Positions 156 through 60,090 are shown, counted from the first letter of the whole stretch. The stretch: 62,967 bases of DNA, filler included, from Reclinomonas americana ATCC 50394 (GCA_048213135.1; 6 parts of 2 records of this genome joined end to end with filler, not necessarily neighbours in it), one strand, 5' to 3'. The notes: a model not told the origin generated them from the letters alone. Numbers and translations are program-made.

Positions 156-3100
156 CGTCACCGACGACGTGGACGACGACGAGGAAGAGCCAGAGCCGGA
201 GCCCGACGACTGGAAGATGCGACGCGACGCGATAGAACGCGATGCCGTCGTGGTCGTGCTGTTGGTGAACACATCCTTCATGTACGACAACTCGGGCGAG
301 TAAATGCCCGTCGTGCCGCCCGAATAGCTGCGCATCATGGTGATTTCACAAACAGCCACCGCACTGGCCGTCGTGGCTGTGCAATTTTTGGTTGCGGTGT
401 GTGAGTGACAAGACGTGCTTTCGCGATGATGGAAATGACACAAACCAGTGGCACGGCAGCTAATGTCACCAGCGCCGATGCCGGACGACGGATAGCGGGC
501 CACAATAGCACTGCTGTCGATACCCGACGAGGTGAGACTGGAGCCCGAGGTGTTTGCCAGCGTGCCTGGCTTGAGGACGAGAATGTCGCCGGTAGACGGG
601 TCGAGCACAACCTCGTACTGGTTCTGCCGACACGCCTCGTCGCACACCTCGTTCTCGTTCACCACCGTCGAACACTCGCAAATCGACGAGACAGGATTGA
701 TGGTGCCAGAGCCACTTGCACAACTCTGAACACAAAGACATCAGGAGGCGCAGTGAGAGTCAACATTCGCACTTGCGCGCACATGCATTTTCACACGACG
801 GACCTTGTTGCAGTCCGATGCACATAGACCAGTCGAGTTTCGCAGCTCGCCATTCGTGCAACGTGGCAGCACAATGGCCTCGCAGTCCAGCGTACTGTCT
901 TGCGTACTGACTGTGAACGAATCTGAAATGAACCGATACCCACGCTCACAGATGCACGAGCCGTCGCTCTTTTGGTACACACTGCGGCACATCGATTTCC
1001 AACATGTGAGCACCTTGCCTGGCAGCAAAAAATCGCACAGCAAACAGACCGATGCGCGCCAATGCACGAGCAGATAGAGGCGCCAGCGACGGATGTGGAG
1101 CTGGAGCCGCACGGGAAGCACGACGTCTGACCGGTGCGATCGTTATATGTACCCGACTGGCACAGGGTGCAGTTCGAAGCCGCCCTGTACGACATCATGA
1201 TGATGAGAGACGATGACTTATTTGTCTTGCACCTACTAAAATGTACACAAGACGCAACATCAGGCGCTTGCTGGCACCAAATGTGCCTGCCGGGCAACCA
1301 ACAGCGTAGGCCGAGCCCTCTGGGCAGTAATAGCCCACAGGGCATTCGTATCCGTTCTGCGTCTGGTTGTTGGTGGGACGGATCGATGTGGCGCCCTCCT
1401 GGCACACGTAGCCGGCCGCACACAACCTGCCGGACAAAGGGAGAGTAAGCGACGGGCACTCGAAATTAATGAATGGAAGAGCGTAATGTCAACGCAACGT
1501 GCACGAGGTACGATCGCTGACAATGCCAGCAGAGCCAGCGGGGCACGGGCCGCACGTGTCGGCAAAGGACGTCTGTGGCGAGTTCTCCACCATGTAGTAG
1601 CCGTACGGGCACAAGGTCGATGTTGACGATCCCTCGGGACAGTAGCTGCCAGTTGCGCACTTGAAGGGCGATCGACTGCCCTGCGGACAGAACCATCCCG
1701 CGGGACAAATTGTCGGAGAGGCCGAGAGCTGCGAGGGATGAGGAACGTAAGAGAGAGTACCAACTTGCGGAGTCATGTGCGACAAAGATTCCAACCTCAG
1801 GACAGTAGTAGCCGGACGGACACACAAGTGCGGCAGCAGACGACTGCGGGCAGTAGGTGCCTGCCGAGCACTTGTTCTTCTGAATGGAGCCGGCAGGGCA
1901 CTGGTAGCCACCAGGGCATGTGGTGCAGTCGGTCTGGTATCGACATGGAAGAATGGTGCGGAGTTAGCACGATGTGGAACGCGAAAAAAGAAAAACAGAG
2001 GAGTCGCACCTGCTCGCCACCACGTGTGGCCGCACGGTAGGAACCGCCAGCACACACGTAGGGTTCAATGGTGCCCGAAGGACAGAAGTGGCCAGGTGGG
2101 CATGGGTAAATCGTCGGTCTGGTAAGATAGAAGAAGACGGTGCGTGAGGATTTCCAAACTGCACCAAGTACGTGGTGCCGCAAACAAGACGCAACGACGA
2201 CATGCCCTCCAACGGGCAGTAGTACGTCTTGCGGCACGAGAGGCAGGTGGTGATGTTGACAGCGCCAACTGTTGGCGAGTACGTACCAGCAGGGCAAGTC
2301 TGTGGGGGGAAGCAGCAGTGAGAAAAACATTTGCGGTCGACCGGAGGAATCTGCGTGCACAAAGTACCATGGCATCCGACGCCAGCGGGCAATACTGTCC
2401 CGGAGGGCAGGCGCGTGGAATCGGATCACCAGGCAGACAAATGTATCCAGGCGGGCACGGACCACATTGCGACAACTGATAGCCACCAGTGGTGACCAGC
2501 ACAGTTCCCGACGGGCACGGCACTGGCTCCTGTTGGATTGGATTGAAGAAAACGGGCGAGTGAGTGAGCGACTGAGGTCACATGGCTTGTCACGTTCCGC
2601 ACGCAGACGCAACAGTGGTGCCCTCAGGGCAGTAGTGGCTGAGCGGGCACGGGCCTCCGCGGAAGTCAAACACCGGCGGATCGCGACGCGGCTCGTTGGT
2701 GAAGCACACAAAGCCAGCGGCGCAGTTGCCGATCAGAGAACCGCCGTTGCAGTACTTGCCAGCCGGGCAGCCAATGCAAGCACCCTGACTCTGCAGGTTG
2801 GGAGCCGTTCCGTACGTGCCATTGGCGCACAGCGCAGGGGCGCCGGAGCCAGCCACGCAGAACGAGCCAATCGGACAGTCGACTGGAGCAGTGGCGCCCG
2901 TGTCGCAGTAAGAGCCGGCCGGGCACTGCAAGCACGAAGCCTGGTTCGCCTGCGGCTGGTATGTACCAGCAGCGCAGGGGATGGCCGAGTCTGTGCCTCC
3001 AGGGCAGTAGTAGCCAGGGTTGCAATGGAACGCCGGTGGGTTCGCCACAGTCTGTCCAGCCGGGCAGTAGAAGCCAGGCGCGCAGTTGAAGTCAGGAAGC

Positions 3101-6100
3101 GACAGACCAGGAGCCACGCAAGCCTTGCCGCCCGTGCAAGTAACGCAGTCGGTGGCGGCACGGCCAGGAGCCGATGTCGACGGCAAGTAGGTGCCCGGAG
3201 AGCACTGCACGACACACCATCGTGTCAGTCAGTCCTGCATTCTTCGAAAGGGGGGAGAGAGACACGGTCGATTTTCAACTCACCGCCACCGGGGCCACGG
3301 TTCCCTGCAAACAATAGTGTCCGTTCGGGCATGGGCCGGTGGCAGGGTACAAGCCATTCGGTGACATGTTGTTCGGACTCGCCGTTGTCGAGCGCTACAA
3401 GTATCGAGTCATTTCGCTGCCGAACGCAAACACAAGAGGGGCTACAGCGACGACGCAACTCCAGCGCAGAAGAACCCAGCGGCGCACGGTCCGGTGACAG
3501 TGGTGCGACCGAACGAGTTGCAGTACGAGCCAGCCGGGCAGTCAGTGCACTGATCGACCGACAGCAGACCAGTGAGGGTGGACAAAGTGCCTGGTGGGCA
3601 CGGCTGTTCGCGAACAAGGAAAGGCGAAGAAAGCAAAACATGAGCAACGGATAGGAGCGACCTGTGAAGTTCTGCGTCGAATACGCACCGATGGCGAGCT
3701 GTTGCCACCAGCGCAGTAGTAGCCGGCCGGGCATGTCAGCGGTGTTGTCATGGCCGAGTTCGGGCAGTACTTGCCGGCCGGGCACGACAAACATGTCGAC
3801 TGCTGGGTGTTCGGTTGGTAGGTACCTGTGCGGCGGCCAATCGTGAGAACAAGGGTAGAGACGCACAGATAAACAACAGGAGACAAACCAGCAGTGCAAG
3901 CCCTCTCGACTCCACTTGCCGCCGGGCAGAAATAACCGGCAGGGCAAGGGTAGCCATCGGGGTCGCCAGCAGGCGTCGGTGTCCGTGAGGTATCCGAGCA
4001 CACGAAACCAGGCTGGAATCAAAATGTGAGTGCACACACACAACAAGAAATAGAAAATGATACACAACGTCGCAGTCTTTGGGTGTGCCAGACGAGTCGC
4101 AGTACTTGCCGTAGAAGCAGTGCTGGCAGCTCGACGACGACTGATTGCCTGTGACACCCGCCATAGTCAGTTTCATATGCAGCAGGACAGACACAGCAGC
4201 TTGTGGTGATCGAACCGGTAGAGTTGCTGAAGGTTCCTGGTGCGCACGGTTGCGGCACAATGCTACCAGACGGGCAATATGTGTTCACGGGGCAAATGTC
4301 ACCTGAGGGGAAAAAAACACAAGAATGTGAGAGCACTGCACGTCACACATCTCGGCGCCGACAAACAATCATACCAGTCGTGTGGTCTGTGGGTGTCGGG
4401 CTACGTGCACCACCGACGCAGTAGTAGCCAGGAGAACAGAAGGCCGTGGGATTCGTGAGTCCAGTTTGCTCGCAGTACTGACCAGCCGGGCACGCTTTGC
4501 AAGCGGCCACCGCAACAGTATTGGTAACATTGCTGTGCGAGTGGCGCAGAGGTGAGTTCGAGTAGGAGACGAACTATATAGGGGCGAGCAGAGGCGCAAC
4601 TTGAAAGTGCCAAGACCGCACGGGAACTGGTTGAAACGCAGAGTTCCAGCCGGGCAGTAATAGCCAGTGGGGCAGTCGCGCAGAATTGGGTACGGCGCCG
4701 CGTTGCCATCGCTAGCCGACAGGTCAGTGCAATAGTAGCCAGCAGTGCACTGCTTGCATGTCGACTGTCCGGCCGTGTCTTGGTAGGTGCCGTCCGCGCA
4801 TTTCTGCACACAGGAAGAGAAGCATCATCAGTGCAACGGAACTCTCTCTCTCTCTCTCACACACTCGCTCTCGCACACAGACGCAACAACAGGCGCTGCG
4901 GTGCCAGCCGGGCAGTAGTAGCCAATGGGGCAGAGTGCGGGTGTCGCGGTGGACGAGCCGGCAGCACAAATATAGCCAGCGTAGCACGTTCCAGAAGGTG
5001 CCGGCAAGCCAGTGGCGCCGCAGAACGAGCCAGCCGGGCAACTGAGGCAGTTCAACAACTCCACGTTGCCGGTCGTGGCCGAATACGTTCCCAACGGGCA
5101 CGGCGTGGGTGTTTGTGAGTTCTGTGGGCAGTAGTTGCCTGTAGCGCACAACGAGGTGTCAGCGGGCAGGTCGCATCTTTTGCAGGAGGAAGGAAAACAC
5201 ATATGTACCGATTGTGCACAGCAAAGCAATGTTGATACCCTGCGACTGGCCTCCCGGACAGTAGTAACCCGGTGGACAAATGTCGGTGGGCGCCAAGTTG
5301 CCAGAGCCGGCGCAGAACGAGCCTGGAGTGCACGGCGTCTCGGAAGTCGAGCCAGCTGGGCAGTAGTATCCCGGACGGCAAATGTTGCCCATGACACCGT
5401 CGGTGGGGTTTTCCACGTTGGAGCGACCCGAGCAGTAGTAGCCACCGCGGCACACATCAGTCCACGTCGACAGTCCGTTCGTGGCGCAGTACTTGCCACC
5501 CGGGCAAGCCAAGCAGTCGGACAACTGATCGCGCAATGAATGGTCGAGTGAACAAACGAGCACCCTGTGTCATATGCAAACACACAGAGAAACACACCTG
5601 GTTGCGCAGCGTCAACGGGTTGTATGTCGTGTTCGGGCAAGCGTACTCGGTGCCGAAGCGCGTGCCAGCCGGGCAGTAGTAGCCAGTCGGGCATGCATTG
5701 GCCATTCCATCGGTGGAGCCAGTCGGGCAGAAGTACGAGGGTGGGCACGTTTGGCATGTCGACTGCTGCAACTGGTCGTTGTACTGGCCAGCAGGGCACG
5801 GAAGCGGGGTGCTTGCGCCGGTGGGACAGTAGTTGCCGATCGTGCACCGATTTCCAGTGGTGCCATCCATCGGGTTTGCCACAGCAGCACGACCGGCACA
5901 GTAGAAGCCCGCGGCGCAGTTGCCTGAGGTAAGCGACATTAGCAAGCTATGCAAATACCGGGAGAACAAAAAAACCAAGTGAGAACGCACCTGAAACAGC
6001 AGTTCGCAAAACGCCGTCGCAGTACTGGCCGGCCGGGCAATCCTGGCAGTCGGTGCTCAGCGCCAGACCAGGGACGCTGCTGAATGTGCCAGGCGGGCAC

Positions 6101-6521: not shown

Positions 6522-9500
6522 GGGCACGGCTGCATGTTGGTGGTGGTGGTGCCGAGTGGACAGTACTTGCCGGCGAGACACGGCAGTGGATTGGTCGTGT
6601 TGCGTGGACAGTAGTAGCCAGCCGGGCAGCTCAAGCATGACGCTTGCTCTGCAGTCGGCAAACGTTGAGCATTCATATTCAACACACACGCACGCATGCA
6701 CTTTTGAGCAGCGGGAAAAACGCAACGAGTCAGTGGCTGGTACGTGCCCTCGGCACAACCCTGCGGCGCGTCGGAGCCAGTTGGGCAGTAGTATCCAGCC
6801 GGGCACACGCCGCCACGAGCATCGTTCGGTGGAGTGGCAGTGTCGCTGCCAGCGTTGCAATAGAAGCCGGCTTGGCACGGAGTGGCTGCACACACACACA
6901 AAGGCGTACTCAGCACACAAACATGCACACGTACACAATTGCATGGGGGCACACTACTCACCAGCTGCCGCAAGGCCAGTGGTGCCGCAGTAGTATCCCG
7001 GACGGCAGGTAACGCAGTCGGTGACAACCTTGGCACCCTTGGAGGGATTGTAGGTCTTTTGTGGACACGCAATCGGGGTGGCTGTGGTGTTCGGGCAGAA
7101 GTAGCCTGGTGGACACTCGTCGCCAGCCGTGCTAAAGGCACAAACAAAGGACGAACGTGAGCGAGGTTTGGGGAGGAGGGGGGGGAATAATAGACAAGCT
7201 TGACGGAGCGCAACTCCATGACAGGGCTCGGCGTCGTGGAGCGACCACTGCAATAGTAACCGGCAAAGCAAGCACCAGTGACGTCGGTCTGCGCGGTCCT
7301 CGTGCAGTAGTATCCAGGTGTGCAGTCAACGCAAGCCGACAGTGCCGATTGCGAGGCCTGTGGCGAGAACGACGAGGAGCTTGAGAATCACCAACCAGAC
7401 ACAAGTGAGAGCAGGAAGAAGTCACAGTGGGAAAAACAAACCAGCGAGTTGAATGTACCGCGAGGGCACGCTGTTGGCACTGAAGCGCCCAGTGGACAGT
7501 AGAAACCGGCTGGACAAGCTGCAAAGTTGGTGTTGCCAAGGCCTGGACAATACTTGCCCGCTGGACAAATGATGCAGCTTCCTTGCGCCACCGCAGGCTG
7601 GTAGTACCCAGCGTCGCACGGAATCGGCGTGGATGAGCCCACANNNNNNNNNNNNNNNNNNNNNNNNNNNNNNNNNNNNNNNNNNNNNNNNNNNNNNNNN
7701 NNNNNNNNNNNNNNNNNNNNNNNNNNNNNNNNNNNNNNNNNNNNNNNNNNNNNNNNNNNNNNNNNNNNNNNNNNNNNNNNNNNNNNNNNNNNNNNNNNNN
7801 NNNNNNNNNNNNNNNNNNNNNNNNNNNNNNNNNNNNNNNNNNNNNNNNNNNNNNNNNNNNNNNNNNNNNNNNNNNNNNNNNNNNNNNNTGGGCAGTACGA
7901 GCCGAGCGGACAGTTCTGCGGAGTGCTCGTTCCGCGTGGGCAGTACTTGCCGGCCGGGCACACAGCGCAGTCGGCCGACGAGGTCGCGCCGGTCGTAGCG
8001 CGGTACGTGCCACCTGGGCACGGCTCCTGCAGCGGACCTGAGGATCCAGTCGGGCAGTAGTAGCCAGGTTGACACGGGCCGGTGACAGCAATGGCCGCTG
8101 CATGGACGAAAAACATAAAACGCCAGTGAGTGCGTGGGGGCGAGGAAAGGACGTGGAAACTGGGGAGAGTGGCGTAACCTTCCAGGCAGTACGAGCCAGC
8201 CGTACACGGTGTGCATTGACCCTGAGCGCCAATGCCGGTGGTGGGATTGAAAGTTCCTGGCGGACAGCTAACTGGCGACGGTGTACCGGCCGGGCAATAC
8301 TTGCCCACCGGGCACAGATTCGCAGGCGAAGCAGGCGCAGTCGATCGACCAGCGGCACAGTACATGCCTGGAGAGCACACACGCACACGCAGAAAATTAA
8401 GTTACAAAAAGTGCAGCCAGCCAGAGAGACAAGCAAGCAACAGATGCAACGCACCTGCGGCGCACGTATACGACGCCTTCATGACCGTCAGCGAGGTGGT
8501 GGCCAGCGGACAGTAGTAGCCGGCTGGACACGTAGAACAGACGCCGGCACCATCATCGCTGTACATGCCGACACCGCACGCCACTGGGTCCGAGGTCCCC
8601 GCAATACATGCAGAACCTCCCGGGCAAATGGCGCACGATCCCTGGCCCCACCTGGCAGTGGGAGCTGGAAGGTGTCGGACACGCAATGTCAGCTCACATG
8701 ATCAGCAACAACTAGAGTCAACACGATGATGCAACTGGGATAGCGGGTGTTGGTCACGTTAGTGTACGAGCCCAGCTGGCACGGAATGGCTGCCGGAGAG
8801 CCGCGAGGACAGAAGTTGCCTACTGGGCAGTCGGAGCACTCGACGGCGGCCGTGAGGTCGGTTCGGCTGCTGTAGGTTCCCACAGGGCACTCGAACTGAT
8901 CGGCAAATGTGGTATTCTGCGGGCAATAGTAGCCGGCACGGCACGGTCCGCTGGGAGCCGACATACCGCCGCGGCAGTAGCTGCCAGCGGGGCACGCTGT
9001 GCACTGAGTGGACGACGTGAGCGCGGTGCTCGACGTGTACGTTCCTGTACGCAGCGCAATGAGAAAGACTCATGGGGCGTGCGGTGTGGCAACAAAAAGA
9101 AAACACAAACCCGGAGGGCATGGGAACTCGGAGGCGTAGGTGGTTCGCAGTCCGGTGTATTGCCCAAAAGTGTGACTCGCAGCCAACGAGCCGTTCGGCA
9201 CGCCGGGGCAGAAATGGCCGCTCTGGCAGGCCACCTTGGGCTGCGCGCAGAGACAAACAAAAACACGACATGTAAGTCACACTAAGGGACAGCAACAGTG
9301 CTGCGGAACATTCGTTTCGGCAACGCAACATTGGCAGGTCCGCCAGTTCCTTCGGGGCACGCAAAGCCCTCCCAACACACATTGCAGTCGTCCACCTTGG
9401 TGAGGCTGGTGGAGTCTGTGAAGGTGCCGGCGGGGCATGGCAGTGCTTGCGCGCTGTCGATGGCAGTTGAGTGATTGAGAAGCAGAGACAGGAGGAGTGT

Positions 9501-12500
9501 TCCCGAGACGAAACTTGGATGATCCCAACGGGCAGTAATGGCCGACGCTGCACGGCGCCGAGAATGTGGTCTGACCCACATTCGGGCACGTGAAGCCCGC
9601 CGGACACAGGAGACAGTTGGTGATGGCGGGGGAGCCAGTGCTCGGATTGTACGTTCCGGCCAAGCATTGCGTCGGCGCGCTTGAGCCGGGTGCGCACCAC
9701 GAACCCGCAGGGCACAACTGTGTGTGTGTGTGTGCGTTTGTGTGAGTCAGGTGTGGGGCGTGACGCGATTGACTGTGGAATCAGACCTGGCACGCGGAAA
9801 TGTCGGTCGACCCAGTGTTTGGATTGTAGTAGCCGGCAGGGCACGGGTACTGATTGGACACACTGCGGAGGAGGGGTCTCAGTATACAGACATGGAGCTA
9901 GCAGCACATATCAGCAGCCAGAATCGCAAGCGCAACTAGGTGCCAACGGGGCAATAGAAGCCAGCGGGGCAGGCACGAGGCGGGTTAACAGAGGTGTTCG
10001 ACTTGACAGTCGCCTGCAAACAGTAGTAGCCTTGCGGGCACGGCTGGCACTGGCTGACGCTGGTGAGGCGCGTGGCCATCATGGACGAGGCGCAACCGGA
10101 GACGGCGGACAGATCGTGCATGGTGCCGGCTGGGCACGGGAAGCTGGTGGCGCTCGGCGTTCCCGTCGGGCAGTAATAACCCTACATTTTGAGGCACATG
10201 CGGTGAGTCGGAGCAAAGGAAAAAAAAAAGAGTTAGTCAAAAAAAAATAGGCGACGCAACACTGGCGCAGTAATAAAGAGGATTGCCGCTGCCGTCCACA
10301 GTGCTGGTGATGGCCGAGTACGTTGTGCCTCCCGGGCAGTAAAAGCCGGCAATGCAGGCGATGCACTGGTCGGCAGATTGGAGCGTATCGGCAGCACCGT
10401 ATGTGCCAGGCGGGCAGTCCAGCTGGCGCAGACCATCGGGGCAGTACTTGCCCTGCGAACAGAAGGCAAGGAGACAAAAGTTGAGTAACACATGTGAAGT
10501 TGGGCGGTTGGCAGGAACGGCGACGCAACAATGGCACACTTGTTGGCGGCTGGCGTCGGAGAAGTGGAGCCAGCAGGGCAGGCGTAACCAGGGGAGCACG
10601 AGTAGCACACGGAAGAATTGGCTGACGAGTAGTAGCCAGCAGGGCATTGCACTGGCGGCACCGATGGGTCAGAGCATTGGGAACCCTGAAAGCGGACGCG
10701 AGGACGAGAGTTAGACATGTGTGATTGTGAACGCCGAGATAAGGAGAGACGCATGTGACATACCGCTGTGCAAGAGGTGCAAGAGGTGGCGCCCTGCTCA
10801 TGCATTCGCGCGTGTCAGCAAAATGTGACAAGAACACGATGGAAACGGATGTACAGGGGAGACGCAACAAGAGCCGACCAGCTTCCGACCGGACACCGCA
10901 CCGGCGGCTGCGTCGCATCCGAGCACTGGTAACCGCGAGGGCACTGAGTGCACGAAGTCTGCGCGAAAATGGAAGGGAGGGTGAGCATGATGAGACCAAA
11001 CAGCATCACGAGTGGCACAACGACAGACCGTGCCGCCGAGGGAGTAGTAGCCGCTGGCGCAAGCCTGACCGGCATTCGACGTGCTCGCGCAGAAGTAGCC
11101 GGCAGCGCACGGCGTGCAGGATGTCTGGTAGCGAAAGCGTGTGTGTGTGCGTGTTGAGTACACCACAACATAAACGAGGTACAATTGCTTGCCGTGCAGC
11201 CACCACAACTCACCGCCAATCCCAGCGAATACGTGCCGGCCGCGCAATTTTGCTCGCGAATGGACTTGTTGGAGCACTGGAAGCCAGCAGGGCATGCCGA
11301 GCAAGCCGACTGGCCAACGGCACTGGCGTAGTAGCCGTCGGGGCACACCGTAAGGGTGCGCGAGGTCGTCGACGGGCAGAAGTAGCCAACCGGGCAAGCC
11401 ACGCAAGCGNNNNNNNNNNNNNNNNNNNNGCCAGTGCCGTTGGCGTTCGGGCACGCGTAGCCTGTCACAAATGATTGGGTCAGCGCGCTCATTTCGTCAC
11501 GCGCGCGTGTGTGTTAAACTCACCAGGTGCACATTGCGTGCACGCCGTCTGGCCAGTGGTCGAGTAGTAGCCGGCCGAGCAAGCGACCGGAGCCACACTG
11601 GTGGAGGCGCACGCGGAGCCGGCAGGGCACGTGGTGCACGAAGTGGCGTTGGCCAACGAGTAGGTGCCAGCGGCGCAGGCCACAGGCGTCGACGATGCAG
11701 TGGCGCACATGAAGCCCTGCGTGTGTAGGTGACAAGAGAATGAGAGACACAGACTCGACAACGTCCCCAGCATTTCAATCTCACCGCCGGGCAGCTCTGG
11801 CACGCTGTGGAACCAGGAAGCGACCAAGTGCCAGCAGTGGTGCAAGCAGCGGGTGCAACGGCGGCTGAGGCGCACGAGGAACCTGCCGGGCACTGTGTGC
11901 AAGCCGTGGATCCAGCCAGCGCGTACCAACCGCTTGCACAAGCCACACGCGCCAATGTTGTCGGGCACTCGAAACCAGCATTACAGGTGGAGCACGCCGA
12001 CGCTGTAGGAGAGAAGAGGCAAGACGGGAGAAGGGGCGTTAGGCACGGGGAGACGGTGAACGTGCAATGCACGCACTCACATCCAGCTGTGGCGAACTGC
12101 CCGGCAGTGCAGGTGGTGACGGTGCCGTTGGCGGCGCAAGCCGTGCCGGCTGCGCAGGTCAAGCACGAGGTGGAGCCAGCAGGGGAGTACTTGTCTGCAT
12201 ATTGTAATGTGAGTGGCGGCGCAGTCTCAAACAGAGTAAACAAACAAACAATTTTACGCACTACCACCGCAGGGAAGTGGAGAAGATGACGCTGATGCAC
12301 AAGACGAATTGGCCGGGCACTGGGTGCACGCCGTGGCGCTTCCGAGGCTGTAGTATCCAGAGGCACAGGCCTGCACAAATTAGCCACCGACCGCGAGTGA
12401 GTTGCTGAGCACAGGAGAAAACTGCAATCGATCGATAGCTGCGATTCACGCACCACTCTGTCAAGAGTAGGATCTGGGCAATAGTAGCCTTGAGGACACG

Positions 12501-15404: not shown

Positions 15405-15643
15405 AGTGTCTCTCTGTGTCTAAGTACACACACCCTTCTCCCTCCCACCCTCCCCCCCCAACGCAACTAGTGACCCGACGGACACGTGACACACGCCCCA
15501 CTCGTCGCATCAAAGTACGTGCCGGCCGCACAGTTCGGCCCACACGTTGTCGCCGACACCAATTGAACCGACAACAACACCACCATCATCAAAGTCACAA
15601 TGAATGATGATGACAATACGCGACTGCTTTTTCTCTTTTCCAT
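156..15643 (-). CDS. Giant secreted/surface cysteine-rich protein with tandem GCC2/GCC3 (ephrin-receptor-like, CPxGxYC) repeats; dozens of short introns; 3' end runs off the window
   Basis: The first exon encodes a signal peptide (MEKRKSSRVLSSSFIVTLMMVVLLSVQLVSA-TTCGPNCAAGTYFD). Hand-spliced GT-AG exons give a continuous array of CPAGYYCPxG...PxxCxxGTY...CxxCPAG units. The repeats end near 700, followed by non-repetitive exons (QNQYEVVLDPSTGDILVLKPG; SYSGGTTGIYSPEL). Confidence 0.93.
15266..15365. other. Artificial scaffold linker (N-TTAATTAATTAA-N, 100 nt)
   Basis: A 12-mer with stops in all six frames, centred in Ns. The identical structure occurs five times in the window. Confidence 0.95.
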
Positions 15644-30012: not shown

Positions 30013-30095
30013 CACAGAGAGGGTGTTGTCTGCGCCGAATTTGAGGCAAGCTCAATTTCAAAACACACACAATCACACACACAGAGAAACGCAAC

Positions 30096-41211: not shown

Positions 41212-42099
41212 GTGAGTGTGAGTTGTGATGAATGTAGTGAGTGGGAGCGTCGGTTGATCCACGCTCCATCCACTTCACTTCAATTGCAAACATGAAGCTC
41301 GGCGGCACTCTGATCCCCCCCACGTTCCTGCGAAAGCGCGGTCGTGATGGCAAGGGCAAGGCGAACTGCGCAGCGGAGATGTTTGCTGTGATGAAGTTGC
41401 GTGCGTGTGTGTCAGTTTGAAGTGGCCACTTTTCTCTCTCTCTCTTTCTCACTCTCGTGTGTGCGCGCGCAGTTGCTGGAAGAAGAGCAACTTTGACGAT
41501 CTGCGGTGCCAGCCAGAGGCGTCGGCGTTGCGCGATTGTGCAAGTCGAGCAGTTGCGTGTGAGAGAAAGAGATGCATTATGCGTGTGGAGTTGCTCACGC
41601 GTGTGTGCAGGCCACCAAGGCGCCTGTGCCTAACACGCTCAACTAGTTACGCACATGCGCGCGCGTGTGTCTCTCTCACAATGTGTGTGCTCACTCACAA
41701 TGTGTGTGCTCATCCACTGTGTATCTCATTGTGCGCAGTGTTTCGTGCATTGCGCTCGCTCTCTTTTCCACTGCTCTCACTCACTCACTCTTGTGTATCA
41801 CAGCATCTGCAGCGCTTGTTCCGTCGCGGACGCAGGTGAACGTGCATCTGTTTTTTGATCGGTTGGTTTTTTTTGTTGGTGTGGTTCCCCCCACGAGGAG
41901 AAGGCAGGGAAAAGGCAGGGAAAATGAATGCTCGTGCATCGCAGCGCTGCGGGCAGTGGTTCGGTGCAAGTGGGATCTCTCTCTCTCTCTCTCTCTCTCT
42001 GTGTCAGTTTGCATGCGTTGCTCGGACGTCCAGTATGCTGTCAAGGTCGAGGTCTGCCAATGTTCTTCTGCTTTCTTTTGGTATGCTGCAGTCTTTGCC

Positions 42100-49061: not shown

Positions 49062-49250
49062 CCGCAGCGAATCCTCAATTGCAATCTCCTTTCTTGCTTC
49101 GTTTCGAATTCTTTGCCACAGGCGTAATCGTAACTAATATGCGGTCTTGGTGGCGGGTGGTGGCGGAAAGTGTAACATTACATACTCACACGTCAGTGGA
49201 AGTTGCGCCTGTCCTTGTGCTCTTATCTCTCTGTTTTTTCCGACGCAATC

Positions 49251-50226
49251 ATGCAGCAAATGATGCTGACTGAGATCGCCGACCACCTCGCCGAGCTCAG
49301 CGGCATTGACCCCTCCATGTTCCGCTCACAAGGGCGCATAGTGGCCGAGTGGGTCGACCTGAGCGACACCGATAGCCTGCTGCAGCGCGACGATGGCACC
49401 AAGTTGGTGCACTTTGTCAGACGTTGCGCGCGACAGAGAAAGCACAGAAGGCAAGGCGCACTCTTTGTGACACGCTGCCACACAGATGGAGAGGCAGTGC
49501 ACAATCGATTCGCCATAGAGTGGAAGGCCGCAGGCAAACCCGGCAATCCGTATCGCGAGGCCATGTTCTTGGACCCGGTCAGCCAGCTCTTCTCCCCTCT
49601 TTTCCACTGCCTGCTTGTCTCACACACACAATGCGCGCCACACACAGGAGCTCACCGACGTAGGCATCGAGCAGGCCGCTGCTCTTCGCGACCCACTGAA
49701 AGCCTTTCGCGATCGCCTGCAACTCGTCGTGCTGAGCCCGTTACGACGCGCGACACAGACCGGTCTTGTGGCACTCGGGTGCTCCCTGCGCGACCGCTCG
49801 TGCGACTGGTCGCGTCGCTGTGCGCGTCTTGTCGTGCATCCATGGTGCCGTGAGCAGAGCGGAGTCGGGATTGCGGATAAGCGACAGACGGCCTCGGAGG
49901 CACAGGCCGAGTTTCACGGTTTCGATAGCCTCGAGCTCGACTACGCGCCCGTGTTGCAGCTGGAAGGCGACGAGGACTCGTACTTTCGTGAGGACGAGCG
50001 CGAGAGTAAGCGGCAGTTGGCGCAGCGGGGCTTTGACTTTATGCGCTGGCTGCTGCGGGAGCAGGTGGAGAGGCACGTCGCGGTCTTTACGCACAGCTCG
50101 TGGTTGCTGGCGCTCTTCAATTCGGTGATGGAGACGCGCGATGAGCGGCTGCGTGAGTGGTTTGCCAATGGCGAGATGCGCAGTGTGGCGGTGCGGTGGC
50201 ACGACCCTGAAGGAGAGGAGCAGTGA
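49251..50226 (+). CDS. Histidine phosphatase (phosphoglycerate mutase-like) family protein
   Basis: Splicing restores VHFVR|HGEAVHN (RHG motif). Also DP|ELTDVGIEQA, SPLRRATQT and VAVFTHS. Confidence 0.93.
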
Positions 50227-51904: not shown

Positions 51905-53760
51905 CTACACGCGATGCAGGCGGTAGAGCCAGTCGGTGATGAGGGAGCTCATACCGAGACCCTCGGGTCCGTACGGCGCGCCAGTGTCGGGATTGTACTG
52001 CTCCGACACACCCGACAGCTCGTACAGCGACAGCCAGCGGTCCATGAACTCGTTTGCCACGTCAGTGTAGCCGTGGCGCACCAGGCCCTGAGCAGGCGGA
52101 GTGATTGAGAAAGAGAGAAGGAGAGGAGGACGCGTGGATGGCACAGGAGTGAGAACGCAACTTCCATCACAAACCAGTTGGGGAAGCCCCTGTTTCGGCA
52201 CGTGGTTTTTGAGACAAGCGACACGGAAAGGAAGGAGAAAGGGAGTGAGAGACATACCACACAGGCCCACGCCACATCAAGTCAATGGTGAACACGGGCT
52301 GGAACTCGGCCGTGTCTGCCGAAACACTCGGCAGCGGGAAGCGGCGCCAGAACTTGGCGGGGTTGGTGATTTGCGAGTGCACAATCGAGTCTGCTCCAGC
52401 GAGGCAAGTGAGTGAGTGACCTGCGCGGATTTCTCTTGAAAACGCGTGAGTGCACGCACCCTGAATGTCCTGCGGCAGGCTCTCCAGCATGAGCGGGAAG
52501 AGCGACTGCACGGCCTCCACGTTCGAGCGTGCCTCCGAACCGTCCTTGGCGCGGTACAGCGAGATGAAGCGCTTCAGCTGCGGGTCCCAGCACTTTTTGA
52601 TAATGGCCTGCTCCGCCACGCCCTGCACCGACACCCAAGTGTGAGAGAGCAGGCGGTGATGATGATGATGATGAGCAACCGACCTGCGCGGCCTTGCACT
52701 CGGCGTACGTGGTCGAGTCGCCCACAAACTTGGCCACCTCCGCCAGCACTCCCCAGCCGGCAGCGTAGACCGCGTTCACGCCCACATCCTTCACCACAAA
52801 CCATCCGTCAATCAAGTCAAAAGGCGCCTTGGTGCGGTGCAGGATCTCGTGCTGGTCCCAATGATACCGCATGGTGTAGTCGACGCAAAGCTCGACAAAC
52901 TTCGGGTACAGCTCCAGCAGCGTCGGCTTTGGGTTGCGCACGTTGTACGCCGGATCGTACAGTGGCGACGCATCGAGACCGCTCTCCCACGAGTGCAAAA
53001 TCGAGACGAGGCCGTCGCCGTCTACATCGCGCGTCGCTGCGCAGAGAGAGAGAGAGCGAAGGAATCAGCAACAGCAAGAAAAAGAAAGAAAGAGAGAGGG
53101 ACGCCTGCAACGCAACTCTTCCACCAGCGCCAATAGCGCACCAGCGGGTACAGGAACTCGCGCGCCAGCTGCTGCTGCATGGACGGGTTCTCGGCGGTGG
53201 CATTGAGAATGGCACGCAGCGAGAACGCCAACACCGGCATTTGCGTCAGCGGCGTCATCTTGTCGTTGCCATACTGCAAATCATCCTCAATGATCAACTC
53301 GCGACTCTGCGGTCCCCAGAAGATGATCTCCGGAATGCGTCTGCATAGAAGTGAGCAGGTGGATGATCGGCGTGTCTCCACAGACAGAGTGCTCACCCGT
53401 CGGGCTGCTGCATCTGCAGCATGGTGCGCATGGAGAGGATTGAGTTGGTCACATTACGGTGCGACCTATGCAACAAATGAGCATGTGGCGCCGGAAGAAC
53501 GACACAGAGGCGCAGAGAGTCACACCAAGAGATCATGTGCGATCCGTCGTCCCACAGCCACTGAAACGCCCCGTACTTGCCAAGAGAAGGCCGGAAAAAG
53601 TGAAAGTTGAGTCCCCCTGATGGAACAACAACATCAACGACTGGTGGTGTGCACACGCAGAGAGAGAATCAATCAACGCAACACTTCTCGCCCTCGCACA
53701 AGTGCGACTGGAGGTACCCGTAGCACTTCTCGACGACCTGCTGCGCAGAGGAGAGGCCGG
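51905..53760 (-). CDS. Glycoside hydrolase of the GH63 / MGH1-like (mannosyl-/glucosylglycerate hydrolase-like) type; 5' end in gap
   Basis: Motifs YGAFQWLWD, TQMPV, RDVDGDGLVSILHSWESGLDASP, MWRGPVWGFPNW and EQYNPDTG. Confidence 0.88.
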
Positions 53761-54411: not shown

Positions 54412-57347
54412 TTACGAGGACTTGCCCTTCTTCTTCTTCTCCTCTCCCGGAGTCGTTGACGCCGTGGTCATGCGCATTGCCAGTGCACCGAACCACGCCA
54501 GACAGGCCACGGCATAGACACGCGCAACGAGTGCAAGATGCGCCGGCAACTCCGTGTCCCCGAATGCAAATCCACTCATGAGAAGCGCGTGCGGGAACAG
54601 CAGCGTCAGCACCAGTCGCGCCACCTCCAGCAGTGCCCACGGACTCAGACGCGAGAAGGTGATGTTGTCCTCGCCGATCTTGCCAATGGTGGTGAGGATC
54701 CACACCTGTTGTTTTCTTCATCGGTCATGCCAAAAGAAGAACGAAGAAATCAATGTCCTCCGCCCTCGCACAACGCAACGCAGTAGGCGGCCTTGCTGAG
54801 GAATCCCAAAGTGTCGAGTGGGAAGATGCTGATGGGCAGGAACACCAGCACCGACGCCACGTACTGCGCAAAGGCGTACACCTTGAGTGGGCCGGCAGGT
54901 CGCGGATTGAAAACCGGGCTCTGACGAGCAAGGAGAGTTGAGCAGTGTGTGGAACATGTCTTTGTGTGAATGAATGCGTCACACACCTTGCTGGGGTCGA
55001 CCTCCGGCGCGCCGTAGGGGTGCGCCGGATCCAGCGGGTTCCAGGCCGGGCCGCGGAACATGACTGGCGAGGACAGGAACATCAAAAAGGAGAGAGGGAA
55101 TGAGGGGAAGAGAGAGACAAACCGCCGAGTTTCTGCCACCAGTGCGGCAGCGAGAGCACTTGCTTGAAGATGCCGGCAAAGTGCTCAAACTGCGTCCACA
55201 ATGGATCGTAGGTGGTGATGGGGTGCACCAGGCCGTACACCACTTGCTCGCCCTCCGGCTCAAACGACTTGTACATGCGGTCGAAAATGATCAGCACGCC
55301 ACCGTAGTTGCGGTCCAAGTAGCGTGGCTGGATGATGGGGGAGAAGGGAACGGGGGAAAGGGGGAGTGAGCGTGGGGGAGGGAGAAAAGAATGCACAAAG
55401 AGTGATGCAGAAGAAGAGATGGAAAACACAAGAAGAGGAGTAACGGCAACAAGTGCAACGTGAACCACCGCCAGAGCGATAACGTGAAGGAGGAACACTG
55501 AGAACAACACCAAGATGGAGGAGGCGGAGGAGGAGGAGGCGGAGGAGAAGGAGGAGGAGGAGAAGAAGAAGAAAAGAAGAAAAGAAGTAGAGGGAGCACA
55601 GGGAGAATGAGAAGATGGAGAAGAAAATAGAGGAGGAGGACAGGAAGAAGGAGAAGAGATGACACTATGACGGAGAGAAGAAGAGGTGGACGGAGAAGAC
55701 AGGAAGAAGATTTCAGCAGCAAGGACAACAACAGAGTGACACCCAGAAGGAAGATGACGAGGAGGAGAAGAAGGAGGAGAAGGCGAGGGAGAAAAAGATG
55801 AAGGAGAAGAAAAGAGAGGAGGAGAACGGGAAGAACGAGAAGAAGATGCCACAATGACGGAGGGAAGAGGAGACAAGAAGACAAGAAGAGGAATACCAGC
55901 AACAAGGGCAACAAGCACCATCGCCAGAGAGCCAACATGAACAAGGAACAAGAAGAAGAACAACAACAACAACTAGGAGGAGGAGGAGGAGGAGAAGAAG
56001 TAGAAGAAGAAGAACAACAACAACAACAACAACAACGACGCCGACGACAAGAACAAGTGGAAGAAGAGGAAAAAGAAGAAGAAGCAACACCAACAACAGC
56101 AGCAGCGACAACAACAACGAGGGAAGAGGAGCAACAATGAGAGGAGATGAGCTCACGCAACATTCCTCCCGTGATGCACGCGATGATGCGACGGCGTGTT
56201 CAACCACCACTCGATCCACCACGGCAGCCGATCCACCGCCTGCGTATGAATCCAAAACCTACCGATCCGCAGCGGTAAGCTCACCAGCCAGCAAAGGGAA
56301 AGAAACCCTTCACATGAGCGACTCACTGGTAAATCAAGTTGATCTGGCTGTGCAGCACAAAGAGACTCGGGTGGATGAACGTGGCCAGCGGCAAGTAGAA
56401 CTGAGCGCACGCAAGCAAGTGGGTGAGCAGCCCACGAATGAGGAGAGGAGAGGAGAGGAGAGAAGGGAAAAGAAGAGAAGGGAAGAGAAGAGAAGGGAAG
56501 AGAAGAGAAGGGAGAGAGAGAAGGAGAGAGAGAGAAGGGAAGAGAAGAGAAGGGAGAAGGACAGAGGGAAGAGATGAGAAGGTGAGAGACGAGGAAATGA
56601 AAGGAAGAGACGAGGGAGAAGAGATGAGGTGAGGAGAGGAGAGAAGTGTAGAAGAGGAGAAAAAAAGGAGAAGAGAGAGCAGAAAAGAGGAGAGGAGGCG
56701 AGAAGATGAGAAAAGAAGAAAAGGGAAGAGAAGGGAAGGGAAGAGAAGAAAAGTAGAGATGAGAGGAGGGGAGAAGAGATGAAGAGAGATGATGACCGGG
56801 AAGAAATGAAGATACAGGAGGAGGAGAAGAAGAGAAGAGGAGAAGAGAAGAGGAGAGGAGAAGAGGAGAGGAGAAGAGATGAAGACGAAGAGAAGAGAAG
56901 CGCGGAGAAGAGATGACGAGAGATGAGAATGGAAGAGAAGAGGAGAGAAGAGGAGAGAAGAGAGGAGAAGAAGTAGAAGAAGTAGCGCAAGCTCATGTCA
57001 CTGCTGTCTCCCTCTTGCGCACCATGAATCCAAAGAGACCCTGCGTGGCACCCTGACGCAGCGCCGTCGTCAGGTTATACTCCTCCGACGAGTGATGCGT
57101 AATATGCGCGCCCCATCCCAGATTGCACTCGTGCGTCGCCCGATGCAACCAGTAATACGAGTGATCCACCAGCAGTGCGACCACCACATGCGCCACCCAT
57201 CCCGCATTCTCCAGCGACCAGTAATGCGCAAAACGCGCGTAACGAAACACCGCCGCAAAGGTCATTACGTTGACAAAGTTGACACACAGTTTGCCGAGAA
57301 GCTGCTGCACCATGCCCGCTGTCAACGACGAGAACGAGTCGTTCAAC
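54412..57347 (-). CDS. AGMO: Alkylglycerol monooxygenase-like fatty acid hydroxylase; 5' end in gap
   Basis: His boxes YYWLHRATHE, AHITHHSSEEYNLTTALRQ and FWIHT...NTPSHHRVHHGRN. Also DRNYGGVLIIFDRM, VYGLVHP and FRGPAW, plus C-terminal TM helices. Confidence 0.9.
55330..56990. repeat. Long purine-rich (GA/GAA/GGA) low-complexity tracts forming two AGMO introns
   Basis: The plus strand is almost purely A/G at about 55330-56150 and 56440-56990, flanking short exons. Confidence 0.8.
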
Positions 57348-57711: not shown

Positions 57712-60090
57712 GCAGCACCGTCATCGGAGATCGACTCCGAGGTCGAGGATGACGTACTGGCCGTGGCGCCGCATTCGTTGCGCAGTATTCCATTTGTGAC
57801 GGATGAAAAGAAAAAGGTGACGGCTACGACGACGCATAGGCGATCGCCTTCGCATGGAACGCAGTTGCTAATGGGCAAGTCGCCACCTCCACCGCCTGCC
57901 GCTGCTGCTTTGGGGAATCAGAAGGGTGTGTCGTTTGCGGTACATAAGCGATCGCCGTCGATGGGAGGTGCGGTGCCGAAGGTGTGGGCGGCGGATTATG
58001 TAGAGGCGGAGCTGGGCTCGTTTCTGGCACCCGTGGGGAAGGCGCAGTCGTCACCGAATGTGCCGCTCACGAATAGTTTTGTGGATGCGCCGCCGTTGGT
58101 GCGCGATACGCTGCGTGGGGGCAATAATGGTACGGCGGCGCGCATGTTGCGATTAGCGCTGGCCAGTGCCGGCAACTCCCCTGCTCCTGCTGCTGCTACT
58201 GCTGCGACAACGGCAACCACTGCGCCAAGCAGCAACGGAAACTCGCCACGGACGGCCCGTGCGCAACACAATGTCACGATTCGACCACCGATGCCTGTCG
58301 ACACGGTCGAGCCGCTGCAGTCGCCGCTGTCTGCCATGCCTCCACGTGTCGAGTTGCGTCGGCCGACGTGCGGACTCTATTTTTGTGTGTGTATATATCG
58401 CATCTCACTCTCCATTGTCGTGCAGACGGCAGCGAAGACCATCGGTGCGATCGCCGCCGAGTATGCCCGACGATGATGATGTGCCGATCCGGCGCTTCCA
58501 CTCGGACGCGGTGGTGTCTGCGCGGGGTGTGGCTGCAGCTGGCAGAGCAATGCCTGTCGAGCGGCTGCCGGTGGTGGTGGCCGAGACGGAGGAGAACAGG
58601 AGACATTCGGCCAATGCGCAGCTCGAGCCCATCTCGCCCGACAGTCCCGATGCGCAGCCTGCACTCGGTGTTGTTGCCGCCTCTGCCGCCGGTGGCGGTG
58701 GGAGCGCGTCGGCATCGGGGGTAGCGCGGCGACACTCGACCGACTGCATCGTGCTGACCAAGGTGCAATTGGTGACGGAGAGCAAGAATGTGCGCATGTA
58801 CAAGGCGTGTGTGGGTGAAACCGGCGATCTGGCGTCGCTCAAGGTGTACAAGAGAGTGGCGTTGTCACCCGAGGTGCGTACTTGTGTGTGAAAAATGCGC
58901 CCCCCATGCTGGTACTCAGGCGCTTGCAGGTGTGGAGTCGGCCAGAGCCGCTGGGGTCGAGCGAGGGCGCGGAGACATTCCTGGCGCTCCACGTACCCAC
59001 CAATCAGACGCTGCTGGTGCATCATCTGCAGTGGGGCGAGGATGAGCAGGAGGTGGACGGGAGAGTGATGGGTACGTTATCATGCAGTCTGTTTTCCGCA
59101 CGAAAACGCCAGGATGGGCTGAAGGTGAATGTGCGTGCAGGCGAGGTGGTGGAAGCGGTGAAGCGGAGAGCCATGTTGGAGCACCCGTCGGTGACACGCT
59201 GCTTGTTTTGCGACTTTGGACCGCGCCATCTGACGGTGGCGAGTGAGCATGTTCCAGGTGTGCTGGCTGCGCTGTGATTCGTCTGGCCGCCTTTCTGCGT
59301 TCGCGTGTTGATTGATTGATTTTTGCAGGTGGCCGCTCGCTGTTCTCGCTCATCAAGGAAACCAAGGGGCCACTGCCGCTTGCCACCATGGCGCGGTACA
59401 CGCGCGACCTCATCGACATTCTTCACTACCTCCACTCGCCCTACCGCGGTGGCGGAGTCGGGCATTTCGACTTGAAGAGCAGCAATGTGACGGTGGTGGG
59501 TGGCAAGTGTCGACTCGGCGGCTTTGCCAGTGCTCCAATACGTTGCGTCGATGAGGGGCGGAGAGGGCAAAGGGGGGAGAGAGAAATGGAGAGACATGAT
59601 TTTTTTTATCCATTTCCTGATGCTCACTGGGATGCGCACAGGGAAACTGTCGGCACCCCACTACCTCCAATCACTGGCCGACGAACCATGCTCCTCGGTT
59701 CGCTACTTTCCCCCAGAAGCGATTCGTGACGACGCCTGTGATTTGTTGCGTGCGCCTCCCTCCCCATCACCGGTCTTGTGCTGGAAGAATGATAATGACA
59801 CATGCCAATGCAGGGCGGCCGACATTTGGGCTCTCGGTTGCCTGCTGGTGGAGATGAGTACAGGACAGCCGCCTTACGGCACCTCCGCGAAACCCGTTCA
59901 GCTCTTCTTCCGCATCGGCTGTGGCGACCTGCCGGTGCCGGACGATCGCAGCGCCCCGCATCTCGGCGAGCACGGACGCGACCTGGTGAGAAGATGTCTT
60001 GCCGTGTCCTCCAGCGACCGGCCACCGGCCTCTGCTCTCCTCGACCACCCGTTCCTCGCCGCCGCTTCTGCCGCGGTTGGGCGGCACTAA
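57712..60090 (+). CDS. STE/MAP3K-like kinase-fold protein with degenerate motifs (probable pseudokinase); 5' end in gap
   Basis: Long S/P-rich N-terminal region, then ASLKVYK, LEHPSV, EHVPG|GRSL, HFDLKSSN, RLGGFA, YFPPE, ADIWALGCLLVEMSTGQPPY and RPPASALLDHPF. Confidence 0.85.

Follow-up and report, generated by a model that had tools for sequence, protein, structure and literature searches.

A second, abundant form of 5′ splice site in a 63-kb stretch of Reclinomonas americana DNA

In a stretch of 62,967 bases from Reclinomonas americana ATCC 50394 (GCA_048213135.1), hereafter called the window, roughly a third of the introns begin with GTTGCG and make up a second class of 5′ splice site (donor) beside the canonical one. 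The window is eukaryotic, with short introns, 22 N gaps, and a G+C content of ~58% in its gene-rich parts, and all results given here come from this single 63-kb stretch. The class had been noticed in an earlier reading made from the sequence alone; our analysis confirms that observation, and we are highly confident that the class is real and abundant. It is narrow, H/GTT[G/T]CGT (the slash marks the exon–intron junction; H is A, C, or T), with T required at +3, and the canonical form is G/GTnnGT (GTGCGT, GTGAGT, GTACGT, GTTTGT, and others). GTTGCGT is GGTGCGT, the canonical sequence from −1 to +6, with one G changed to T. As to the cause, we give about an even chance to pairing with the U1 (and/or U6) small nuclear RNA (snRNA) displaced by one base.

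The sequence-only reading had placed GTTGCG donors at about 28 coordinates; the motif was found on the expected strand at all 28, and the last exon base was never G (A 11, T 12, C 5, G 0). Over both strands, the window holds 66 copies of GTTGCG, 38 of them outside that list, and the eight unlisted copies that follow a G lie, judged by context, antisense to genes or within exons. The word had also been expected to be commoner than composition predicts. Within the window, this excess was seen for GTTGCGT, with 32 copies against 10.86 ± 2.96 in 100 dinucleotide shuffles, none of which attained 32. Of the 16 words GTTNNGT, only GTTGCGT, 3.2-fold above a second-order Markov expectation, is strongly enriched, the runner-up being GTTTCGT (1.8-fold).

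Independent support was obtained for 22 of the 28 listed sites, each site counted once: four from cross-species alignment, three from restored motifs, 12 from a gene finder, and three from paralogue alignment. The supported sites are spread over at least seven different genes. The cross-species test used a custom protein-to-DNA spliced aligner that was given GT/GC...AG, an intron penalty, and BLOSUM62 and nothing else. In a GH63 gene, 22 homologues placed eight introns, with GTTGCG donors picked at 53682 (17/22 homologues), 53116 (20/22), and 52161 (16/22); the remaining five donors (GTGTGA, GTGAGC, GTCGGT, GTGCGT, and GTATGT) were each preceded by G. For a fatty-acid-hydroxylase-family gene, the top 60 (P0023–P0082) of 150 hits were taken, and the 47 with a length of 250–560 residues were aligned. 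Introns 57022–56401 (g/GTGCGC), 56326–56259 (a/GTGAGT), and 56161–55328 (t/GTTGCGTG) were placed by 46/47 homologues, and intron 55122–55064 (g/GTTTGT) by 27/47. Spliced alignment upholds all four of the listed sites that were homology-testable, in two unrelated genes.

Restored protein motifs fix further junctions, as the sequence-only reading had proposed. Splicing at 49423 yields FVRHGEAVHN, with the histidine-phosphatase RHG motif; splicing at 56161 yields HHGRN/PRYLDRNYGG; and splicing at 17423 yields CAHCR/ASHLSCSDERPCHRC, with a Zn2Cys6-type spacing. Pfam searches at E ≤ 1 with the open reading frames (ORFs) flanking 17423, 22192, 45559, and 58353 added nothing, with no Pfam match for the Zn2Cys6. 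In a protein kinase gene, excising 59542–59641 and 59745–59813 gives HFDLKSSN...FPPEAIRDDACD/LAADIWALGCLLVEMSTGQPPYG, motifs that are missing from the frame of a rival GC donor. Among seven kinase homologues, at ~41% identity too distant to decide, one picked both GTTGCG donors.

The gene finder, a Viterbi model with codon log-odds and at most an acceptor matrix, had donor knowledge limited to GT. It was run without an acceptor model (run 1, 68 introns), with one (run 2, 63 introns), and on the giant Cys-rich repeat gene of the minus strand alone (run 3, 43 introns, 10 of them with GTTGCG). GTTGCG was its commonest donor hexamer (12/68 introns in run 1 and 12/63 in run 2), and the chance of drawing at least 12 such sites in 68 random picks from the 7,480 GT sites, 66 of which are GTTGCG, is 1e-12. 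Runs 1 and 2 each recovered 12 of the 28 listed sites (13 distinct ones between them), the model being good only in the giant gene and missing or misplacing many introns elsewhere. Beyond the other evidence, it supports 1258, 1498, 2613, 3459, 4600, 7214, 9329, 9936, 10260, 10529, 13587, and 54779. Finally, exon peptides of the giant gene were aligned across each listed site. In this noisy paralogue vote, the listed intron came top or joint-top at 1258, 2613, 4600, 4887, 6726, 9936, 10260, and 13587; 10868 was the top donor with both its acceptors pooled, and 3459 and 10529 were best-voted at the site itself. The six listed sites outside the supported set are 15467 and 30095, whose introns are gap-bound, and 22192, 43330, 45559, and 58353, which had open-frame checks only. 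The class accounts for 4 of the 12 homology-supported introns and for ~16 of the ~46 introns of the giant gene.

We compiled 34 sites, namely the 28 listed ones and six candidates: two with motif support (41396 and 59745) and four unverified (2195, 41552, 49202, and 62741). The sequence-only reading likely missed at least two further donors of the class, those at 41396 and 59745. The compiled sites and three introns with a variant donor are as follows.

1185..1258, minus: intron of the giant gene, donor t/GTTGCGTC, 74 nt; Viterbi runs 1–3, top paralogue vote 5/19
1427..1498, minus: intron, donor c/GTTGCGTT, 72 nt; Viterbi runs 1–3
2119..2195, minus: likely intron, unlisted, donor c/GTTGCGTC, 77 nt; by context, an in-frame alternative to Viterbi donors 2159/2171 with acceptor 2119 shared, its length more typical than that of the gene finder's choice
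2530..2613, minus: intron, donor t/GTTGCGTC, 84 nt; Viterbi runs 1–3
3395..3459, minus: intron, donor a/GTTGCGTC, 65 nt; Viterbi runs 1–3; its junction GFFCAG/RSTT fits the repeat pattern G.YC.GRS found elsewhere in the giant gene
4533..4600, minus: intron, donor a/GTTGCGCC, 68 nt; Viterbi runs 1–3, paralogue vote 4/19
4804..4887, minus: intron, donor t/GTTGCGTC, 84 nt; paralogue vote 9/19; Viterbi took in-frame 4890, acceptor shared
6649..6726, minus: intron, donor c/GTTGCGTT, 78 nt; paralogue vote 7/19; Viterbi read through in frame
7132..7214, minus: intron, donor a/GTTGCGCT, 83 nt; Viterbi runs 1–3
9241..9329, minus: intron, donor t/GTTGCGTT, 89 nt; Viterbi runs 1 and 2; run 3 took 9380, acceptor shared
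9454..9514, minus: variant-donor intron, a/GTTTCGTC, 61 nt; Viterbi runs 2 and 3
9863..9936, minus: intron, donor a/GTTGCGCT, 74 nt; Viterbi runs 1–3, paralogue vote 5/18
10182..10260, minus: intron, donor t/GTTGCGTC, 79 nt; Viterbi runs 1–3
10453..10529, minus: intron, donor t/GTTGCGTC, 77 nt; Viterbi runs 2 and 3, paralogue vote 4/18
10794..10868, minus: intron, donor t/GTTGCGTC, acceptor 10794 or 10797; paralogue votes 3+3/18; in the Viterbi calls it forms part of a merged intron of 216 nt
13038..13098, minus: probable variant-donor intron, c/GTTTCGTC, 61 nt; in-frame alternative to a 46-nt Viterbi intron, 13083–13038
13521..13587, minus: intron, donor a/GTTGCGTT, 67 nt; Viterbi runs 1–3
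14278..14341, minus: variant-donor intron, a/GTTTCGTG, 64 nt; Viterbi runs 2 and 3
15461..15467, minus: listed GTTGCGT donor, its intron entering an N gap; motif only
30089..30095, minus: listed GTTGCGT donor in a gap-ridden region; motif only
52088..52161, minus: intron of the GH63/MGH1-like gene, donor a/GTTGCGTT, 74 nt, phase 0; 16/22 homologues
53037..53116, minus: intron of the GH63 gene, donor a/GTTGCGTT, 80 nt, phase 1; 20/22 homologues, Viterbi runs 1 and 2
53617..53682, minus: intron of the GH63 gene, donor t/GTTGCGTT, 66 nt, phase 1; 17/22 homologues
54706..54779, minus: intron, donor c/GTTGCGTT, 74 nt; Viterbi run 1 only; homologues diverge at the site
55328..56161, minus: intron of the hydroxylase gene, donor t/GTTGCGTG, 834 nt, phase 0; 46/47 homologues, HHGRN/PRYLDRNYGG
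17423..17488, plus: intron, donor a/GTTGCGTC, 66 nt, phase 0; CAHCR/ASHLSCSDERPCHRC restored
22192..22296, plus: listed intron, donor t/GTTGCGTC, 105 nt; open frame only; Viterbi used a different donor with the same acceptor
41396..41472, plus: intron, unlisted, in a CHCH-domain gene, donor a/GTTGCGTG, 77 nt; the ORF has a Pfam CHCH match; splicing restores a twin Cx9C, CAAEMFAVM/NC followed by CQPEASALRDC
41552..41610, plus: candidate intron, donor a/GTTGCGTG, 59 nt; by context, frame open until the stop
43330..43410, plus: listed intron of a TRIP4/ASC-1-like gene, donor a/GTTGCGCA, 81 nt; sole open phase 0, REYLR/NFLGDSRDSQEF; a Pfam TRI4_N match ends one residue short of the exon end
45559..45626, plus: listed intron, possibly the last, of the TRIP4-like gene, donor t/GTTGCGTG, 68 nt; phase 1, ...GHPMI/YQLPPQVVERAQRQLKRG and a stop
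49202..49256, plus: candidate intron upstream of the likely ATG of the His_Phos gene, donor a/GTTGCGCC, 55 nt; context only
49423..49485, plus: intron of the His_Phos_1 gene, donor c/GTTGCGCG, 63 nt, phase 1; FVRHGEAVHN, Pfam His_Phos_1 on the downstream ORF
58353..58425, plus: listed intron in the N-terminal part of the kinase, donor a/GTTGCGTC, 73 nt; ambiguous, with two open phases; the gene finder (run 2) preferred donor 58348, 5 nt upstream, acceptor shared
59542..59641, plus: intron of the kinase, donor c/GTTGCGTC, 100 nt, phase 1; frame with HFDLKSSN...FPPEAIRDD; chosen by 1/7 distant kinase homologues, its acceptor by 4/7
59745..59813, plus: intron of the kinase, unlisted, donor t/GTTGCGTG, 69 nt; joins DDACD/LAADIWALGCLLVEMSTGQPPYG, restoring AADIWALGCLLVEM; acceptor chosen by 5/7 homologues
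62741..62747, plus: candidate donor a/GTTGCGTC, close to the window end; motif and pyrimidine-rich downstream sequence

As the 34 sites were selected by the word GTTGCG, their positions +3 to +6 are fixed and only the flanking positions are free. T occupies +7 at 28 sites and C at six, and −1 is A in 15, T in 13, and C in six. Relative to expectation, GTTGCGT stands at 3.2-fold, with GTAGCGT at 0.76-fold, GTCGCGT at 1.25-fold, and GTGGCGT at 0.82-fold. A minor variant, H/GTTTCGT, is used at 9514 and 14341 and probably at 13098. One apparent counter-example to the rule on the preceding base, g/GTTTCGT at 44012, was rejected: it is no donor, the frame demanding g/GTCGGT at 44008.

That the class never follows an exonic G is a real rule. 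The base before the 32 copies of GTTGCGT in the window is G in none (2.0 expected), A in 11 (2.1), C in six (2.6), and T in 15 (3.3), and the absence of G at −1 from all 34 compiled sites has p = 5.6e-4 given 19.8% G before GT overall. In the giant gene (Viterbi run 3), G at −1 was found in 0/10 GTTGCG donors versus 22/33 other donors (Fisher p = 1.8e-4); against the GTnnG[TA] donors alone, of which 16/18 follow G, p = 5e-6. The homology set gave 0/4 versus 7/8 (p = 0.010). These last counts also bear out the claim that ordinary donors here mostly follow G. The sequence-only reading had proposed splitting donors by the −1 base; run within the window, this split showed G at +5 going with G at −1, and G at +6 with A, C, or T at −1. 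In the pooled sets, donors after G had G at +5 in 24/29 and at +6 in 2/29, and those after A, C, or T had G at +5 in 3/26 and at +6 in 17/26. Canonical donors of the type H/GTGCGT are rare (a/GTGAGT at 56326 and a/GTGCGT at 12744). G/GTTTGT donors in the canonical register are frequent (55064–55122, 6112–6176, 7358–7441, and 9045–9110, all on the minus strand), always after G.

Apart from the donor, the introns of the class look ordinary. Their median length is 74 nt versus 69 nt for canonical introns, the pyrimidine fraction is 0.65 and the G+C content 0.52 in both, branch motifs are CTCAC-like in both, and supported introns all end in CAG or TAG. Their 3′ halves are indistinguishable from those of ordinary introns, and the spliceosome is of the same type. 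With GT/AG ends, frame and homology restored on splicing, branch-like YTNAY, and a pyrimidine-rich tract, they have the features of U2-type (major) GT-AG introns. U12-type (minor) introns have the donor /RTATCCTT and the branch TCCTTAAC; that type was rejected, the donor here being GTTGCGT and the 3′ halves major-like.

Cleavage occurs 5′ of the G at +1 of the class. Introns displaced by one base at both ends (TT..GN) were considered and rejected: at 49423, the displacement gives FVRRGE in place of FVRHGE (RHG becoming RRG), and among the 47 hydroxylase homologues, the score was worse in 29, better in 15, and equal in three. At a GH63 junction, the same exercise was uninformative (seven better, five worse, and four equal of 16). 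Reading through the 49423 intron gives no motif.

It could still be asked whether a distinct class exists at all, or whether the sites are hand-splicing artefacts or members of a repeat or introner family beginning with GTTGCG. Six listed sites lie outside the supported set, and fifteen belong to one repetitive gene. Against this stand the homology result (4/4 in two unrelated genes), the spread of supported sites over at least seven genes, and the intron bodies, whose mean local score is 6.6 within the class, 7.0 for canonical introns compared with each other, and 6.8 across the two classes (231, 253, and 506 pairs). Because similarity of the bodies within the class does not exceed that across classes, the class is not an introner family, and a transposon or other repeat family was rejected on the same comparison. 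We regard this explanation as very improbable and largely refuted.

To account for the class, the sequence-only reading had invoked a shifted U1 register or a variant U1 or U6 snRNA used as a routine mechanism. The pattern of a shifted register is indeed present, with GU, U at +3, G at +6, and U at +7, of which the T at +7 (28/34) is a free observation. The standard U1 5′ end is ACUUACCU. We modelled the pairing of the 34 sites with assumed U1 5′ ends using ViennaRNA duplexfold, ignoring pseudouridines and proteins. The 5′ end AUACUUACCUG, as printed in the accessible part of PMC4856993, gave a mean of −1.1 kcal/mol for the GTTGCG class and −6.8 for canonical donors. A U1 with an ACGUAC box gave −5.0 and −8.0 kcal/mol, respectively, with G+1 on C9 in 19/34 sites, on C8 in 2/34, and unpaired in 13/34, and an ACGCAC box gave −7.0 and −9.0. 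With either of these assumed ends, 19–20 of the 34 sites fell in the shifted register, and among 16 choices for U1 positions 5–6, G at 5 with C or U at 6 was predicted to be best for both classes. Because the standard U1 reaches only −1.1 kcal/mol against −5.0 with ACGUAC and −7.0 with ACGCAC, the variant U1 half of the earlier proposal appears, by modelling, the more likely half. No snRNA was found by Rfam in the window, where nothing reached the gathering score and at E ≤ 1 there were just sub-threshold microRNA (miRNA)-like matches.

In the simplest reading, one and the same reader would bind both donor forms. We propose that U1 would read GUUGCGU one base off its usual register. The intron G+1 would sit on U1 C9, taking the place of the exonic G−1, and U+2 would lie opposite C8; U+3, G+4, C+5, G+6, and U+7 would pair where +2 to +6 usually pair, and the catalytic core would still cut at the sole GU. 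The U1 of this organism would probably carry G at position 5 (ACGUAC or ACGCAC, not ACUUAC), and the obligatory C at +5 of the class would follow from that proposed G. The absence of G at −1 might reflect compensation together with mutational entropy: where the exon ends in G, the looser canonical motif would win, and where it does not, the intron would supply the G. Introns after an exonic G would then drift to the far more degenerate canonical motif, which would explain why the strict 7-nt form is seen in 0 of ~55 of them. Pairing alone would tolerate or even favour G at −1 in both registers and would permit H/GTGCGT; as the former is absent from the class and the latter rare, we infer that a G facing C9 is close to obligatory and may be read by a protein.

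Several points weigh against this displaced pairing. The duplexes are modelled with assumed U1 ends rather than observed, G+1 is unpaired in 13 of the 34 ACGUAC duplexes, and the evidence comes from one window, with 15/28 listed sites within one gene. The class is limited to GC (or TC) at +4/+5, while canonical donors also include GTGAGT, GTTTGT, and others. Shifted forms of other canonical donors are unenriched (GTTGAGT 0.80-fold, GTTACGT 0.53-fold, and GTTAAGT likewise), and a shift of canonical donor words in general was rejected. A plain shift by itself predicts no exclusion of G at −1, and thermodynamics cannot alone explain its complete absence, because the shifted −1 faces U10, with which G could wobble-pair. 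Nor do the −1 bases of the class mirror the canonical −2. Lastly, H/GTGCGT in the canonical register should equal or exceed the shifted form in stability, yet it is rare here; a factor beyond duplex stability, e.g., a protein touching the G that faces C9, therefore has to be assumed. The earlier mechanism stands in part: the register pattern, the T-only +3, and the absence of G at −1 agree with it; the restriction at +4/+5 and the completeness of the exclusion of G fit a plain shift poorly.

The same sequence is compatible with a bulged register, in which G+1 and U+2 would pair canonically on C8 and A7, one U (+2 or +3) would bulge out, and GCGU at +4 to +7 would pair like +3 to +6. Human 5′ splice sites include validated bulges of a single nucleotide at +2/+3 (Table 3 in the accessible part of PMC4856993 counts 68 predictions, of which curation left 54), and as either of two adjacent U residues may bulge, the requirement for U at +3 is not decisive. 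However, a bulge should favour G at −1 through the extra C9 pair, and it is found in 0/34; words with other bulged bases (GTAGCGT, GTCGCGT, and GTGGCGT) are unenriched, and duplexfold put G+1 on C8 in just 2/34 sites with ACGUAC or ACGCAC. Enrichment at +3 for T only fits a pairing U better than an arbitrary bulge. We consider the bulged register possible, if unlikely.

A dedicated paralogue, i.e., a second U1 (or U6) whose 5′ end or ACAGAGA region would be complementary to GUUGCGU, would let two donor specificities coexist. The narrowness of the class (7 nt, versus a degenerate canonical class) and the poor pairing of the standard U1 5′ end with it would suit such a molecule, and in the accessible part of bioRxiv 10.1101/2022.06.08.495308, Archamoebae U1 variants co-evolve with donors and Physarum is said to have standard and modified U1s. 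Nevertheless, no snRNA is seen in the window, a paralogue retaining the usual CCU beside its pairing box would again prefer G at −1, and a single U1 with G at position 5 already yields acceptable modelled energies for both classes. A dedicated paralogue seems distinctly unlikely to us.

Recognition might instead be mainly non-U1, with U6/U5/Prp8 or a UUGCGU-binding protein defining the donors and the resemblance to shifted sites being incidental. The absence of G at −1 and the strict C at +5 do go beyond standard U1 thermodynamics, and Tan et al. 2016 (PMC4856993, accessible part) note cases in which U6, not U1, sets the cleavage site. Yet the one-base relation to G/GTGCGT and the swap from G+5/T+6 to G+6/T+7 with the −1 base are as expected of a common reader in two registers, and, reasoning from the pairing scheme, GUUGCGU pairs worse than canonical forms with U6 ACAGA. 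We give this option little credence. There is also a small chance that two major-type donor codes exist side by side, through either a U1/U6 paralogue matched to GUUGCGU, which would serve the third of introns preceded by A, C, or T, or a single U1 with an obligatory C9-opposed G and cutting on either side of it. If so, cutting would be uncoupled from recognition of the 5′ splice site, with an offset of one base, routinely and genome-wide.

Genes were placed by Pfam matches on stop-to-stop ORFs.

1–15.5 kb, minus: giant Cys-rich repeat gene (Ephrin_rec_like)
41.3–41.8 kb, plus: CHCH protein
43.1–45.7 kb, plus: TRIP4/ASC-1-like gene
47.9–49.1 and 50.7–51.8 kb, plus: two EamA transporters
49.2–50.2 kb, plus: His_Phos_1 gene
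51.9–53.8 kb, minus: GH63/MGH1-like hydrolase
54.7–57.6 kb, minus: fatty-acid-hydroxylase-family gene
57.7–60.1 kb, plus: protein kinase
60.3–61.5 kb, plus: WD40 protein

The giant gene (window 1–15600) consists of Cys-rich repeats CP.G.YC... with weak-to-moderate Ephrin_rec_like matches between which the frame shifts. More than 4,000 codons with ~46 short introns were recovered piecewise; four gaps interrupt the gene, and it extends past the window start. The best named homologue of the GH63 gene, at merely 48% identity, is from Pelomyxa schiedti, and a search of metagenomes with a GH63 exon detected no relative. For the TRIP4-like gene, neither a homologue search nor PDB sequence searches with two exon ORFs returned matches. 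The EamA-family paralogues (47898–49058 and 50748–51824) each form one long open frame, on either side of the His_Phos_1 gene. Two introns of the fatty-acid-hydroxylase-family gene, 56401–57022 and 55328–56161, are unusually long (622 and 834 nt, versus ~70 nt elsewhere), and the 622-nt one contains a 530-base purine-rich (GAGGA)n-like array (TRF 56440–56980). In the WD40 gene, a 132-base tandem repeat at 60725–61095 (plus strand; 2.1–2.5 copies, ~72% identity) represents recently duplicated WD blades.

Five gaps (15266–15365, 25931–26030, 29834–29933, 53761–53860, and 57612–57711) consist of 44 N, TTAATTAATTAA, and 44 N. They are scaffold joins made with an all-frame stop linker, not sized gaps, and the introns of the listed donors 15467 and 30095 extend into such joins. 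Between 24000 and 41000, where few convincing genes were placed, N runs of 577–912 bases lower the apparent G+C content, and there are many (GA)n, (CA)n, and CT-rich arrays. At 23008–23166, several plant and animal miRNA-precursor models match both strands far below threshold (best 43 bits vs 80); this stretch is most likely a long inverted repeat or low-complexity hairpin.

If the class is general, what is a rare oddity in mammals would be a routine way of marking introns. The clean rule, with canonical donors where the exon ends in G and GTTGCGT where it ends in A, C, or T, offers a natural system for asking how the register of U1 (and U6) becomes a cleavage site and why a G adjacent to the cut is so strongly required. 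In such a genome, gene finders and splice scorers that use a single matrix with G at +5 would mis-score roughly one donor in three. The proposed mechanism also makes a checkable prediction, a U1 5′ end with G at position 5.

The literature searched yielded no account of donors of the GUUGCGU type. The class is apparently an abundant variant, so far undescribed, of a mechanism known as a rarity. The closest parallel is the mammalian GUUAAGU type of site (Roca & Krainer 2009), which, in the accessible part of PMC4856993, where that study is cited, likewise has a GU followed by an extra U, the usual +5/+6 G/U moved to +6/+7, a G+1 proposed to pair with U1 C9, and cleavage that stays at GU. Shifted and bulged registers are validated there in human cells; together, the validated non-canonical registers account for 1.5% of all 5′ splice sites in human, and the +2/+3 bulges number a few dozen. 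Such sites are thus rare in mammals, unlike the third of introns found in our window; moreover, +4/+5 is here GC or TC, not AA, G is strictly excluded from −1, and the register is modelled only. With the bulge +2/+3 register of the same source (Roca et al. 2012, cited there), the class shares a one-nucleotide offset between the GU and the downstream pairing block, without any benefit from G at −1 or tolerance of any bulged base.

A second comparison is with Archamoebae, where, as far as the accessible part of bioRxiv 10.1101/2022.06.08.495308 goes, U1 5′ ends have co-evolved with donors: Entamoeba has ACAAAC with GUUUGU(U) donors, and Mastigamoeba balamuthi has a candidate ACGUAC U1 with donors seen as 'GUGCGC' in expressed sequence tags. 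Common to both are U-rich or C-containing +3/+4 positions and a preference at +7, and in both a change at U1 position 5 would make the C at +4 (in the shifted form here, also at +5) a Watson-Crick partner. G/GTTTGT, the donor word reported as near-universal in Entamoeba, is in the window one of many canonical forms, and the Archamoebae covered there have one consensus per species, with no second class displaced by one base. The trade-off between exonic and intronic guanines also recalls the −1 G/+5 G 'seesaw' of ordinary 5′ splice sites (accessible part of PMC8283771), which is a graded loss of one pair, whereas here the register itself would change and a discrete second motif results.

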